In this document: positions 1-12,600 of the stretch, in pieces | Layout: each line of letters begins with the position of its first letter | Numbering within the stretch: the first letter of the stretch is position 1 | Origin: an uncultured Bacteroidales bacterium | GTDB lineage: Bacteria > Bacteroidota > Bacteroidia > Bacteroidales > VadinHA17 | Direction: 5' to 3' | Assembly: GCA_963849945.1 (NCBI GenBank) | Contig: CAWKJD010000021.1 | Span: 3,978 to 67,977 of the forward strand | DNA length: 64,000 nucleotides | Program-made: the position numbers and the translations under genes | The notes under the pieces: model-generated | What the model saw: only the letters and a program-made list of their open reading frames with translations | Told to the model about the DNA's origin: nothing | Databases searched by the model: none

Positions 1-254
1 GTCGCATCTTTCCCTCTTGCTTCTAACCGTTCTGCCTTTGAGTCAAGTCTCTCTCCTCTTCTTTCAGCTCGTTTTACAATTCTCTCTGCTTTCTTTTCAT
101 TTTTATCATCAAACCATCTCCCGTCAGGGTCAATATATCTTATAGGATTATTCGCAGCATAGCAGTATGGCGAATATGAGTGGTCTTTTTCAGCACTTGG
201 GTCAATCACGTGCCACCTTCCAATCTGGGGATCATAGAACCGTGCTCCGTAATC
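1..254 (-). pseudogene. orphan Rhs C-terminal fragment (core end [14 protein letters not shown] plus start of the toxin tip), running off the left edge
   Basis: nt 1-254 align base-for-base with 10185-10438 inside the intact rhs gene. The first 221 nt are identical, followed by 3 synonymous mismatches. Upstream in-frame codons read [14 protein letters not shown], with no start codon. Confidence 0.8.
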
Positions 255-389
255 CTGTTGATCTACTCATATAAAACAACTCATCCAAAAGCTGCAGGAA
301 CTCCAAAAACAGGTGTTATTCAAAGAACGATCTAATATTTAAAGATACCTTTTTTCTTTTAATTGAGATTTTCAGTTAAAAAGAAAAAG

Positions 390-881
390 CTATTCTTCAT
401 CCACTATCGGGATTATTGATGCTAATTCCTTCTCGATGTCAAGACCATATGATACGGCTATCTTTGCGATATGGATTCCAAAGACACCTCTGAGTTCACC
501 TAATCCGCTGATAAATATCCAGGAACTGATATTGTCAAAAGGAGGCCTCAGGTATCTCATTTCATGTTTATTGTCTTGAGTCTTATCCAGGAACTTTCTG
601 CAAGCGGCTCTTAATGCTCTCAGGTTTGTTTCCAGTTCAGATCCGCTAGCTAGAGTGCCGATTTCATCAGTCAGATATCTTCTTATCTCAATGATAGATT
701 CAACGCAGTGCATCGGCATTTCCATATCGTATGGCGAGTATAATACTCTCCGGTCTTCCAGGAAAGATATTATTCTCTTGGCGACTTTTCTCTCGGATTC
801 AGGAGGATTCCAGGATACTCCGAAAAAAGGAACACTGATTCCGGTGATTCTTTTTGATACTTCTTTGAAGTTCATTTTCAT
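390..881 (-). CDS. hypothetical protein (164 aa from MKMNFKEV)
   Basis: ORF 390..995. The first 38 codons are Cys/Lys-rich and look non-coding, so the Met at 881 is preferred. No family recognised. Confidence 0.5.
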   Translation of the reverse strand: MKMNFKEVSKRITGISVPFFGVSWNPPESERKVAKRIISFLEDRRVLYSPYDMEMPMHCVESIIEIRRYLTDEIGTLASGSELETNLRALRAACRKFLDKTQDNKHEMRYLRPPFDNISSWIFISGLGELRGVFGIHIAKIAVSYGLDIEKELASIIPIVDEE

Positions 882-1100
882 GGGATTAATGAATGAGGAT
901 ACTAAAGTTAGTAAAAATACAGGATCCCATCGCTCGCCATCCCTTCTGCATTTATTTTTGTCATGGTTTTTGTGGCTGATGCACTTGCAGCACATGCCGG
1001 CTTTTGTTTTTGTGTTGGTTGATTTTTAAGTAGTAAAAACAAAACCGGCAAGAGCTGCGCCGCCCCTTTCCGGATACAAAAACTCACGCCAAAAATAAAT

Positions 1101-1211
1101 GCCCAAAGCTATAGTTACATAATGCAAGTTATACGCAGCCTGTCTTTCAGTGGTATTGATTTTTGTGTTTCGGCTGCCTATAACTGGCATTATGTACTTC
1201 GGGCTAAAGCC
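1101..1211. repeat. palindromic unit A: two inverted copies of a GGCTGCCTATAA-N-GCATTATGTA core
   Basis: The tail of 1101-1140 (tacataatgcaagttatacgcagcc) matches the reverse complement of 1172-1196 at 23 of 25 positions. The spacer is 31 nt. Confidence 0.7.
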
Positions 1212-1305
1212 AAATAGCCGCACTCCCTCCCCGCCTGACCCGGTAGCCAAAACCTCAAAAAAACAAAGCAAAGGTATGCAAGCTCCGCACTGGCCGACCC
1301 GCAGT

Positions 1306-1396
1306 AAAAAAGCAAGGCCAAGACAAGTCCCGTTAAATTTTTTTATTTAATTTTTATTTTCAATGGTAAAAATTTTAACGGGAGCCTTGCTTTTTT
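1306..1396. terminator. long hairpin flanked by A6/T6 runs; possible bidirectional terminator downstream of ORF 1460..1741
   Basis: AAAAAAGCAAGGC (1306-1318) pairs with GCCTTGCTTTTTT (1384-1396). An inner stem CCCGTTAAA / TTTAACGGG encloses an AT-rich loop. Confidence 0.45.
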
Positions 1397-9040: not shown

Positions 9041-9050
9041 GGCTCAATAT

Positions 9051-9075
9051 AAAACAAAACCCCAGTCGCCCAGGG
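9051..9075 (-). terminator. GNRA-loop hairpin plus U-tract downstream of Rhs locus 1
   Basis: The minus strand reads CCCTGG-GCGA-CTGGGG-TTTTGTTTT. The same module recurs at 30516-30540. Confidence 0.5.
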
Positions 9076-9115
9076 TTCTGTTTATCTTTACAGGTTATTG
9101 TTTCTTTTTTTTGTT

Positions 9116-9640
9116 TTATTTCTTCTCACGAAAAGGTGTAGATACAAACATTAAGAATGGGTAGCAGCTATTCCATTTTTTATGAAGAATAGTTTTCTTC
9201 TTATAAGTTAATGTATCTGTTGTGATATTATCAATATATCCATACATATCAATTATTGATAAATTTCCTTGATCGCCTAATACTAAAGGTTTGTTTTCCA
9301 TTAATTCCTTGTTCATAAAAGAACATTTTCTTATCTGACTTTCAGGCAATTTAAAACATTGGATATTTAAACTATCTGCATACTTGGTAGTATTTTTGAG
9401 GATAATTTTTTTATCCATAACTTTATAAGTGCAAGTAATTCTAGTTTTTCGATATTGCTCATCTAAGTCACATAAAAACTGTTGTTCATATGTACATATA
9501 GTATCATTGACAAATTTTATTGATGTTACCTTATAGGGATCATCATGAATGAATGTCCTATCACTCAATAATAGCGTTCTCGAGCATGATTGACAGAAAC
9601 AAAATAGAGGAATAAGAATCAACACCTTTTTCATACACAA
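9116..9640 (-). CDS. candidate Rhs immunity protein, exported (signal peptide, possible lipoprotein)
   Basis: Starts 4 nt after the rhs stop codon. N-terminus MKKVLILIPLFCFCQSCS. The position is typical of a cognate immunity gene. Confidence 0.6.
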   Translation of the reverse strand: MCMKKVLILIPLFCFCQSCSRTLLLSDRTFIHDDPYKVTSIKFVNDTICTYEQQFLCDLDEQYRKTRITCTYKVMDKKIILKNTTKYADSLNIQCFKLPESQIRKCSFMNKELMENKPLVLGDQGNLSIIDMYGYIDNITTDTLTYKKKTILHKKWNSCYPFLMFVSTPFREKK

Positions 9641-9643
9641 TTT

Positions 9644-12600
9644 TTAATTATTATCCCATTGATCTTTTTTTATTCCTGGTGGAGGATACAAAGGACCCCA
9701 TGTATATCTCTTTACCTTATTAACCACACTTGATGATCCTTCTCCAATATTATTAACAAGATCTGAGTTTATCAAGCCGATATTATTTATACCTGATGTT
9801 GGTATTATGCCCGGTCCTGAACTTTCGAAAACTGATCTAAACAATGGGTACTTATCTAAAAAATCCGCCGGCTTATATGGCAGACTTCCATCATAAGCGT
9901 ATTGCGCTTTGTAAGCGCTAACTTCATCCTGTACTCCATAGGTGTTTGCCGTTAATGTTCCACTTGCAGCATCACCTCCATGCCTAAATTCATGAAGTTG
10001 ACTTCCCATATTTTTTTCAACATACATGGTAATGGTACCTGTGCCTAAACCTGCTGTCGCCGGCCCTCCTGCTTTATTTGATTTGTCATTTACAGAACCA
10101 TATCTAAATTCTGTACTTGACTGACCCATAGCTGCAATATCTTGTCCAGTCTTTCTTAATTCCGCACTACGAGCTCTTAGATCAGTCGCATCTTTCCCTC
10201 TTGCTTCTAACCGTTCTGCCTTTGAGTCAAGTCTCTCTCCTCTTCTTTCAGCTCGTTTTACAATTCTCTCTGCTTTCTTTTCATTTTTATCATCAAACCA
10301 TCTCCCGTCAGGGTCAATATATCTTATAGGATTATTCGCAGCATAGCAGTATGGCGAATATGAGTGGTCTTTTTCAGCACTTGGGTCAATCACGTGCCAC
10401 CTTCCTATCTGGGGATCATAGAACCTTGCGCCGTAATCATACCAGTCCAAACTCGCTCCTCCAAAGTAATCGTCCTGCAATTCTTTTCCATTATAAAGAT
10501 ATTTATTATTAGAAGCCCCATTTGCATAAGCTATCATACCAAAAGGATAGTAGTCTACCTTCTGCGTTGAGATCAATGTATCTCCAGATGGTTTAAATGA
10601 AGCTCTGATATTGCCCAAATGATCTTTCAGAAAATACTCATAATCATAAGTAGAGCCTGTTACGTTAACGACTCCTTCATCAAAATGAATTAATACAGGC
10701 AACATATTGTTATCATACTCATAAGTGCCTGTATAGTACCTGTCAGTGATATTTCCGTCTGATATCAAACGCTTCTTAAGCTTAACTCCAGTAGCATCGT
10801 AGGTGTACATCACCTTATGTGTTGCATCATGTATGACTTCCGAAGGTAAATTTAAGTAATTATATTTAATATTAACAATACCTTTATTAAGATCCTTTAT
10901 CATGTTACCATTACTATCATACTCGTACTCCTGTCCGCTTGAATACTCATGCCCATCAATAAATCCGTGACCCTTCTGACCTTGATCTTCAACTGCAATT
11001 AACATATTTCCTTCATAATAATATCCTAGATTGTCAAGGTCAGTATAAACAGTATCGCTCTCCTCACCTGATCGGTTCAGACTTAAGATGTTTCCGTTGA
11101 GGTCGTAGCTCCCTACCGACTCATTATATTTACCACTTAATTGATCAAGTTCCGGACCTTGTCCATAAACAGATGTCGTTAGTCTGTTGAGTGCATCATA
11201 TCTGAAGCTATAGCCCTTAAGATCTTCGGCGTTTTGCTTCCACTTCATACCTGATATATTGCCGTTGAACTGAGGTAAGATATTAATCAATCCTACCTCC
11301 GTTGTATCATTATATAACAAACTCAAAGCAAATAGATCGCTCCCTTGATTCTCGGGATCATTAATCCCTGTAAGCCATCCCCTTATGTTATACAAGTAAT
11401 CAACATCCTGCAGATAATTGTCATCAGTAGTTTCGTGTAGTTGCTTTGTCTTAAGCTGACCGATCTCATTATATGTCATCTTTGACACCTGTACCGTATC
11501 TTCGCCCACAATCTCATGGTAAACGCCTGTTGGCCTGTACTTATGATCATAGTCGTACCAGCGGTTTACTATAACTGGGACTGGAGTGTCATCATACTTG
11601 TAATTGACAAGTCTTGTTTTTAACAAATTGCCAATGAAGTCGTATTTATTTAGGGTAAACTCTTTTCCGGCTAACAACGTTTCATTATAAACACGCAGAA
11701 CCCTGTACTTGTCGTCATAGTAGGTCGCAGATATAAGGTATCGGTCTTCCCCCAGCACTTTTACTAAAGATCCGGTAACCTGTCCTTTAACGGCGTAATT
11801 GACTTTACTCACCGGGAAGTCATCACCTATATCAAGGCTTTCTGAAAAATTGGTAATGAGATTAAGCGTATCAAAGTCATAATTATCATAGTATGTCACC
11901 GTCAGGATCTTATCGTTGGCTCCCAATACCGGGTATGACTGGTTAGTGTAACCGAAGTTTGTACTTGTGTAATAACCGGTCATATCTTCATAATAAACAG
12001 TCATACTGGCATTTACCAGTGACTGCATACTGTCACGGGTAATGACGGCATTATTATGGTGGAGACCTGTCATTACTGGCCTGTTAAGCCTGTCGTATTT
12101 AGTAAACAACCATTTTGTGCTGTCACGCAGGTTACCATCCTGAGTCATGACAAGACGATCTCGTTTATCATAGACCATATAAACAGGTGCCACACCCGGA
12201 AGCTTTTTTACCGACATGCGCTTGCGGGTATCATACTCGTAATAATAGCACAGAGAATCTATTAAAGAATCCGAAGTATCCAGTGTATCAACTGACGTCA
12301 TGAAAACTGCTGCCTTGGGGGGAATGACATATCGCAATAATCCGAAGTCATCATACACATAATAGGTCTTTGCTTTCAAGGTATCTGAATCCGATACTTT
12401 CAGCACAACCTGGCCCTGTAAATCCTTATACTCCGAGTTCCACACTCCGTTCTCGTCACGTAGCTCATTCTTATATAAAGTACCTGCATCATAATAATCC
12501 GTACTTACCAGTTGGTCATTTGCATTGACACTGAACATTATTACCTCGTCTGCTACAATGGTGCCATAATTTAAATGCATAGCATGATCATTACCCGATT

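Follow-up and report, generated by a model that had tools for sequence, protein, structure and literature searches.

New tips from other bacteria have so far been described as reaching Rhs and other polymorphic toxin genes only by C-terminal displacement, through recombination with DNA of unknown origin. Koskiniemi and colleagues are said to have described such displacement, and orphan tips, in 2014. Here we analysed an rhs locus of an uncultured Bacteroidales bacterium in which the toxin tip appears to have come with a small integrative element. The locus lies in a stretch of 64,000 nt (contig CAWKJD010000021.1, positions 3,978 to 67,977) that we call the window; loci that we compared with it carry L numbers. 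C-terminal displacement and arrays of orphan tips were defined by Jackson et al. 2009 (PMC2935791). The process that we propose is like theirs in that silent tips without start codons, with their immunity genes and part of the core end, lie behind a full-length rhs gene, and in that the old tip is moved downstream when a new one takes its place. In the described process, however, the tip is acquired by homologous recombination from incoming DNA of unknown origin, whereas here it would be brought by a self-contained element with its own recombinases and replicase. In addition, the junction here consists of an 8-bp core, and what comes before the displaced tip is element sequence and not a core remnant.

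Another system of Bacteroidota, rAID-1 (Ross et al. 2019, bioRxiv 10.1101/471110; PMC12247911), has one XerD-like recombinase, arrays of immunity genes and repeated intergenic motifs, and is recognised by a recombinase at least 44% identical to BF9343_RS08045. It resembles our element in having a XerD-like recombinase beside co-oriented cassettes derived from toxins and immunity genes, and integron-like accretion has been proposed for both. In contrast to our element, rAID-1 has no primase-helicase and no functional Rhs fusion; here there are two recombinases (Int1 and Int2), a replicase and a single cassette, and the circle would integrate whole. The order after Int2 in the window is ORF6N gene, 93-aa open reading frame (ORF), structured region, DUF6650 gene and then one cassette, which is not the layout of rAID-1, and no repeated intergenic motif family was found after Int2. 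Xer recombinases also adjoin polyimmunity loci (Zhang et al.), and a recent paper (PMC13183296) reports that tips are shared independently of Rhs context and does not name the vehicle. No replicon that inserts at the end of the Rhs core is described for rAID-1, for the loci of Zhang et al. or for the displacement of Jackson et al., and in the literature that we searched, coverage of which was incomplete, we found no description of an Rhs-targeting integrative element.

Three other kinds of system are related in mechanism. As in integrons, a cassette without a promoter would enter a fixed site through a tyrosine recombinase, the host locus would give expression and older cassettes would be pushed away. 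Unlike integrons, the element has no IntI and no attC for each cassette, the whole replicon integrates, and expression needs an in-frame protein fusion. The scores against the integron integrase model TIGR02249 were 97.9 bits for Int1 and 41.1 bits for Int2, below the cut-off of 265, so neither is classed as IntI. Shufflons and tyrosine or serine invertase switches (Rci/PilV, the Gin/Cin tail fibres, hsdS) swap C-termini by inversion among resident segments of one locus. They share with our element site-specific recombination in conserved coding sequence that exchanges C-terminal domains in frame, and differ in that here the alternative C-terminus would come on a mobile replicon by integration. 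Elements that replace the 3' end of a gene (tRNA-targeting phages and integrative and conjugative elements; SGI1 at trmE and the dusA islands, PMC8409611) also use a tyrosine recombinase, integrate within a gene and supply its distal part. They restore the same product (PMC8409611), whereas here the product would be changed, with a new toxin domain and a matching immunity gene, and the target is a motif common to a multigene family. No tRNA genes were found in the window, so the element is not a tRNA-targeting island. It combines an integrative element with Rhs tip displacement, both of known kinds.

Crossover site and empty site

Window 255-10438 is, with good probability, an integrated copy of a plasmid-like integrative element of ~8-10 kb, in which the tip would be exchanged by site-specific integration. 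The sequence-only reading of this DNA had raised, as the second of two options, an integrative element that targets the conserved end of the rhs core, carries its own copy of the 3' end and swaps the tip. Circle-like contigs, integrated copies, comparisons of attachment (att) sites and a nearly identical genome (L090) all support this option. The comparisons gave us a circular or wrap-around form in assemblies of relatives, an integrated form, the position of the crossover, an empty site, and the same element in two Rhs genes. The insert is bounded by a short shared att core, GATTACGG, at 10438-10431 and at 254-247 (Table 1).

Judging from three comparisons of attL, attR and attP, the crossover is inside this 8-bp core. 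L018 7111-15871 is 99.93% identical to the circle L019, and the tip fused to its Rhs core is the circle's tip. The attL of L018 has Rhs core ending in AACTGGTAT, then GATTACGG and TGCACGG, the same as attP from nt 1. Its attR has leader ending in GACTAGCAG, then GATTACGG and GGCAAGG; that is, it departs from attP at nt 9 and leads into another tip. Identity between L010 1769-6839 and L011 1196-6266 (99.98%) begins exactly at GATTACGG, and the attR differs from nt 9. L038 and L039 have the same element (99.3%) in two different Rhs genes. L039 has GATTACGG at attL and GATTATGG at attR, and the junction in L038 is GATTACGG, indicating that exchange occurred 5' of nt 6, within nt 1-5. We counted as evidence only the switch of alleles at nt 9 or earlier, which was found in all three comparisons; the sharp boundary on the element side is a property of the cassette and does not bear on the crossover. 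In most integrated loci attL and attR have in common only the core and scattered matches. As far as these sequences go, the att identity that matters for function amounts to ~8 bp rather than 254 nt, and the long 254-nt repeat in the window is a same-tip duplication that is absent from most integrated relatives.

The two sides of the core are conserved differently. The 38 distinct element-side junctions share TTTTT..RAGTAGRY.. and then GATTAYGG, and the 12 host-side junctions have ..TGGAYTGGTAY and then GATTAYGG. Reading the sequences, we found an imperfect inverted repeat around the core (TAGAC, 6 nt, core, 6 nt, GTTCTA).

An element-free version of the same locus exists. The partner protein encoded upstream of the Rhs gene (13071-16547) was found exactly on a second contig, of 343,544 nt, and this locus is L090. 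Over window 26546-10399 the two are 99.93% identical, and the 3,400 nt of Rhs core that lead up to the att core differ at a single position. The match extends as far as nt 12 of GATTACGGCGCA and is lost beyond it. Neither a primase nor recombinases are present in L090, whose tip differs from that of the window and is followed by orphan tips. L090 is thus an unoccupied attB in a close relative with the breakpoint at the core, and provides the comparison with an element-free orthologous rhs locus that the sequence-only reading had called for. At the level of sequence, it shows a recent tip replacement in the lineage of the window, coincident with the element.

L090 also has an orphan, at 21514 (L090:21438-21560), that is preceded by ~76 nt of element leader ending in TATATGAGTAGATCAACAG and then GATTACGG, with no backbone. 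The same junction can be written as leader ending in GAGTAGATCAACAG, then GATTACGG and the tip. This orphan looks like the scar of an earlier visit by an element. If it is, then some orphan arrays were built by the element.

Circle-like contigs, integrated copies and tandem copies among relatives

The primase-helicase has more than 1,700 homologues, many on contigs of 7-10 kb. The order HTH(-), primase, Int1, Int2 (HTH, helix-turn-helix regulator) was found in 79/79 loci of one metagenome scan and also in L001, L003 and two isolate plasmids. A scan of genome contigs with Int1 gave 2 loci only, and scans of viral contigs with the DNA motif and with the primase gave no match. We located the motif coding for DYGARF in loci with primase identity of at least 58% and enough flank. 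It was 1.8-3.8 kb upstream of the primase gene, on the same strand, in 19 of 20 loci, and 1-4 kb past Int2 in 8 of 11. The upstream motif closes long Rhs ORFs, with 860-1338 in-frame codons in L008, L018, L032 and L039 and 913 in the window. At the downstream motif, the nearest stop is 1-22 codons before it. Related elements at unrelated sites, which the sequence-only reading had named as a finding that would speak against an rhs-targeting element, are therefore not what we found. The element-borne tips are diverse (ColE5-like, Ntox10, Ntox21, LHH, DUF6973, Toxin-JAB1).

Several relatives were found as circle-like contigs. L005 (8867 nt) overlaps itself by 127 nt at its ends and encodes a primase with 93% identity to the window's. 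It is collinear with window 8056-3372 (88%), 1457-1073 (91%), 982-923 and 389-121. Its single cassette is in the middle of the contig, far from the ends, and has a non-coding region before it and no Rhs core. L036 and L042 resemble L005. In L019 the first 1813 nt equal the last 1813 nt, giving a unit of 8721 nt. Each of the circular or wrap-around relatives L005, L019 and L010 has one start-less tip. L017 consists of an Rhs core and then 1.84 identical units. L006 matches circle L005 over more than one unit and begins with 785 nt of differing sequence, joined near the boundary between tip and immunity gene; it may be a recombinant with another tip.

Relatives at ~50% primase identity (L070, L077, L080, L082) have the same backbone and no DYGARF cassette. 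Cassettes in L070:6903-7938 and L080:8392-9323 begin with GCL[KR]L[TA]Y, L077 has a PLA2-like HDxxY protein across the contig ends, and L082:2813-17580 is an exact tandem dimer within a 1.17-Mb contig.

There was no close relative in PLSDB; the best primase matches were 31-33% identical. These distant relatives are on Aureibacter tunicatorum pAT2 (L091/L092) and a plasmid of Aureispira sp. CCB-E (L093), both finished and from cultured Bacteroidota. Both plasmids have the arrangement Rhs core-tipX-immX-element-tipX-immX-element-tipY-immY. The repeat unit of pAT2 is 8169 nt, with copies 99.98% identical; that of the Aureispira plasmid is 7652 nt, with copies 99.67% identical. The tandem dimers end RHS genes of 2390 aa and 2562 aa. 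The Aureibacter junction has an 8-bp core, TATGGATT, that codes for Y-G-F of YRYGFNGKE. The Aureispira breakpoint is at or just after TACGAG, which codes for Y-E of YE..NHLGN.

Based on these comparisons we infer the following life cycle. The free circle would contain the divergent HTH regulator, the primase-helicase, Int1, Int2, an accessory slot, two inverted structured modules, a leader and one cassette. The cassette would have neither promoter nor start codon; it would begin at GATTACGG (Asp-Tyr-Gly of DYGARFYDP) and provide ~45 core residues, the tip and the immunity gene. The circle probably replicates by means of the primase-helicase, perhaps together with the structured modules. Int1 and Int2 would catalyse recombination of attP with the identical 8-bp GATTACGG of a chromosomal Rhs gene, so that the whole circle inserts. 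The tip and immunity gene of the element would then become the expressed 3' end, the tip being fused in frame to the resident Rhs shell and the immunity gene giving protection. The previous tip and immunity gene would be pushed downstream of the element and become a silent orphan. Orphan arrays could then arise as elements excise, return, form tandem copies and later lose the backbone, and movement between cells would spread the element. The steps of insertion, tip fusion and displacement of the old tip are supported by the structures of the loci; the enzymology, replication, expression and transfer are proposed.

The left copy and rival explanations

Window 1-254 is a direct repeat of 10185-10438 (99% identity; 10,184 nt from start to start), as determined by a repeat search and pairwise alignment, and identity over this length is far beyond chance. 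Because the window edge truncates the left copy, the repeat is at least 254 nt long. The copies are identical over window 1-221 and differ at window 246, 242 and 222 (nt 9, 13 and 33 of the repeat in the minus sense). None of the three changes the encoded residue (GGA/GGC Gly, CGG/AGG Arg, ATT/ATA Ile). The right copy lies in frame near the end of the 1160-codon Rhs ORF 13126-9644 (minus strand), beginning at residue 897. The left copy has no start codon; the sequence before it reads stop-VDQQ, with the stop 4 codons upstream. These findings agree with the sequence-only reading, which had described the repeat, its 221 identical nt and three synonymous mismatches, a silent start-less left copy, and two tyrosine recombinases and a primase-helicase between the copies; Pfam, PDB and NCBIfam matches bore out the identity of the latter. 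Two of its figures needed correction. It had assigned the last core codons and the first ~60 tip codons to the repeat. Based on the extent of the Rhs-associated core domain TIGR03696 (residues 859-941 of the Rhs ORF; NCBIfam), ~45 of the 84 repeated codons are Rhs core and ~40 are specific to the tip. Also, a circle released across the repeat would have 10,184 bp, and not 9.9 kb.

Up to GATTACGG itself, the sequence before the left copy is element leader, with no core remnant. The leader ends in TATATGAGTAGATCAACAG, as in circle L005. Most likely, by analogy with the two isolate plasmids, the left copy is the internal junction of a tandem second copy of the element. This second copy is our best guess for what lies to the left of position 1 because both plasmids show a same-tip tandem arrangement. 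Alternatively, the left copy could be a nearly identical tip that was resident before. Since it does not match the tip resident in L090, the window did not arise by one insertion into an L090-like locus.

The other option in the sequence-only reading was a classical orphan array. That is, homologous recombination would have displaced C-termini, and the element with recombinases and primase would be an unrelated passenger between cassettes. Classical arrays do occur in related bacteria. L083-L089 have the same ~100-nt core end before every cassette, and L087 is missing two cassettes that are present in L085, evidently lost through recombination between these repeats, to judge by their sequences. 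The tip and immunity gene of the window (10449-9048) form one travelling module that recurs at 94% nucleotide identity in such arrays. Our locus has a full-length Rhs gene (ORF 13126-9644, with TIGR03696) and a start-less fragment, and the left copy is silent, as orphans are. That part of the option stands; the rest does not, since element leader and not a core remnant precedes the left copy. Moreover, element and cassette are together on circle-like contigs, the Rhs tip is in the same position in 19 of 20 relatives, and crossovers were in the first 8 nt in 3/3 comparisons, whereas the conserved region has its longest identical stretch elsewhere. We think it very improbable that the locus is an array of this kind. 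It is somewhat easier to imagine, though still unlikely, that the element is real and enters by RecA-dependent homologous recombination across ~40 nt (here at least 254 nt) of Rhs core-end homology, its recombinases having another purpose such as resolution of plasmid dimers. XerC/D-like pairs commonly have that function, and the absence of Arg I from Int2 would fit. The stretch of at least 221 identical nt is a good substrate for RecA, and the mismatches at nt 9, 13 and 33 fit crossover or gene conversion 3' of nt 33. However, what attL and attR share in most integrated relatives is too little for efficient exchange by RecA, and the mapped crossovers are at nt 1-8 (nt 1-5 in L039). The junctions of distant relatives are equally sharp: that of Aureibacter is at TATGGATT and that of Aureispira at or just after TACGAG. 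Conserved leader motifs also lie beside the core on the element side.

We also considered an assembly artefact, in which the terminal 254 nt were borrowed from reads of the right copy or from a co-existing free circle. The repeat is cut exactly by the window edge, the related contigs L008 and L038 end 99-126 nt into the same kind of repeat, and a related contig from the same data source (ena:ERZ25039554:contig_16401) has a long-read-style name. Three mismatches separate the copies, however. The junction of non-coding region, DUF6650 gene and leader with GATTACGG is of a type that recurs in dozens of assemblies made independently, among them L066, which has the same DUF6650 insertion, and same-tip duplication is also seen in finished isolate plasmids. 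We give an artefact very little credence. Even with a borrowed tail, the junction itself would be the attP of a free circle, in support of an integrative element.

Several points weigh against that integrative element as the source of the tip. Relative to L005, one extra nucleotide near window 8002 in the primase gene separates the CHC2 zinc finger at the N-terminus from the reading frame of the rest. Either the replicase has been inactivated, and the copy may be defective in replication, or the insertion is an indel error of long-read assembly; the names of the contigs are in the style of a long-read assembler. Int2 may be inactive, as Arg I is missing from its sequence. IntDOT of CTnDOT also lacks Arg I, yet is active; by this parallel, which we offer only as a lead, Int2 need not be inactive. 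No relaxase or other transfer function was found among the Pfam and NCBIfam matches of the element proteins. The circle-like contigs could be perfect tandem arrays, given the tandem sequences in L017 and both isolate plasmids, and the free circle of the window's own genome is a prediction from assemblies of relatives. The crossover was mapped in only three comparisons and the pair of window and L090. A single simple insertion into an L090-like array was rejected, the left copy not being L090's resident tip. Finally, the left copy and attL differ at nt 9, 13 and 33, whereas exact tandem dimers elsewhere are identical there. It is possible that gene conversion with other rhs copies was the source of these three mismatches.

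A broader proposal seems to us only a little better than an even bet. The integrative element would belong to a widespread Bacteroidota family of self-replicating integrative plasmids that act as a shuttle for Rhs tips. In this family a Xer-like pair, one member without Arg I, would act on an 8-bp core in Rhs codons (DYG; YGF in Aureibacter; the YE..NHLGN site in Aureispira) and exchange toxin and immunity gene in frame. The family would be a main source of orphan arrays, would spread because cells without the element lack the immunity gene, and would use the structured modules as strand-specific priming sites. The element would be a concrete vehicle for new tips: a small replicon with one tip-immunity cassette, a site-specific reaction in conserved codons, and the old toxin archived downstream. 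It would explain the growth of some orphan arrays, and a selfish, immunity-driven spread is predicted. It would also be a system from nature in which recombinases exchange protein domains in frame. Two cultured strains with finished genomes, Aureibacter tunicatorum NBRC 107587 and Aureispira sp. CCB-E, carry relatives, which makes experiments feasible.

Backbone, structured modules and neighbouring genes

Features of the window are in Table 1. GC content does not distinguish the element (0.33-0.46 across the region).

Table 1. Features of the probable integrated element and the surrounding rhs loci
Feature	Window position	Strand	Remarks
Start-less second copy of the first 84 codons of the cassette	1..254	-	cut by window edge; not the resident tip of L090
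Second GATTACGG core	247..254	-	attR or internal junction of tandem copy; element sequence before it
attP-type leader, 135 nt	255..389	-	…TGTTTTTGGAGTTCCTG…TTTTATATGAGTAGATCAACAG; directly 5' of core
DUF6650 gene	390..995	-	apparent cargo insertion between structured region and att leader
Structured non-coding module, forward copy	925..1140	-	two nested helices with covariation
93-aa conserved backbone ORF	1460..1741	-	
Structured non-coding module, inverted copy	2479..2684	+	
ORF6N-domain protein	2735..3283	-	variable accessory slot; replaced by DUF1016/YhcG in one relative
Int2, XerD-like paralogue	3374..4375	-	Arg I replaced by Ser; Arg II, His III, Tyr kept
Int1, XerD-like tyrosine recombinase	4329..5225	-	canonical R-K-H-R-H-Y
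Primase-helicase	5343..8049	-	CHC2 zinc finger, Toprim, P-loop; intact reading frame is 7868-5343 only
XRE-type HTH regulator	8190..8573	+	divergent from primase gene; conserved backbone position
138-aa backbone gene	8624..9040	+	87% identical in L001 and L003, beside a different tip
Candidate cognate immunity gene	9116..9640	-	lipoprotein-like, 172-174 aa; 3' part of cassette
Element-borne cassette	9644..10438	-	last ~45 Rhs-core codons and toxin tip, 264 codons; HEFRH motif; fused in frame to Rhs core
attL core GATTACGG	10431..10438	-	Asp-Tyr-Gly codons of DYGARF; junction of chromosomal core and element tip
Chromosomal Rhs core	10439..13126	-	DUF6443, RHS repeats, first half of Rhs-associated core domain; 1 mismatch vs L090 in 3,400 nt upstream of att core
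Upstream partner gene	13071..16547	-	RHS repeat and BACON domains; overlaps Rhs ORF start; exact protein also in L090
Unoccupied GATTACGG core, potential attB	32062..32069	-	at end of second Rhs gene of the window

Int1 and Int2 both match Phage_integrase, and the best PDB match of each is XerD (1a0p). Neither reached the XerC/XerD equivalog cut-offs of 335.15/329.6 in NCBIfam (Int1 160.6/156.2, Int2 103.4/107.3); on these matches, both are Xer-like in fold and sequence only. The canonical R-K-H-R-H-Y set was present in 49 of 50 distinct relatives of Int1. Among relatives of Int2, 34 of 37 have a residue other than Arg at Arg I and retain Arg II, His III and Tyr. In L003, which is from a related data set, Int2 has breaks similar to the one in the primase gene of the window. 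Circle L005, although otherwise collinear, lacks the DUF6650 gene, whereas L066:6896-7399 has it at 93% identity; the position of this gene looks like a cargo slot adjoining the cassette.

The stretch ~1460-925 is non-coding and strongly conserved. It includes a structured module of ~175-215 nt, present in two inverted copies per element. We compared 26 distinct copies (for example L076:7449-7655). Across 40 predicted pairs, 94.9% of cells were paired, compared to 47-54% with partners slid, and compensatory double changes were found at 18 pairs. One pair is G-U in 19 of the 26 copies, indicating a strand-specific fold. No Rfam family matched at the gathering threshold, and at E<1 there were only spurious miRNA-like hairpin matches. 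Judging from the predicted fold, the modules could form an origin, as a pair of sites for priming on single strands, or could represent a new non-coding RNA.

No Pfam family matched the toxin tip (9644-10438). The module of tip and immunity gene is the first cassette of the classical orphan arrays L083-L089, which are in metagenome-assembled genomes of other Bacteroidales.

The window has a second rhs locus, with the same pairing of partner and Rhs genes (31284-38601, minus strand). Its tip is different, and over 3.3 kb the cores of the two loci share 91% identity. The stretch between them contains, at 18305-30312 on the plus strand, a cluster resembling those for type IV pili or type II secretion, with a T2SSE ATPase, a secretin, a PilN-like protein and T2SSF. 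A type VI secretion context was considered and rejected, as these genes are of the type IV pilus/type II secretion kind and no type VI secretion genes were seen. A sequence of ~300 nt is near both rhs loci (39088-39384 and 30338-30501), and is also found inside the orphan array of L090 (19329-19625), at 88-94% identity.

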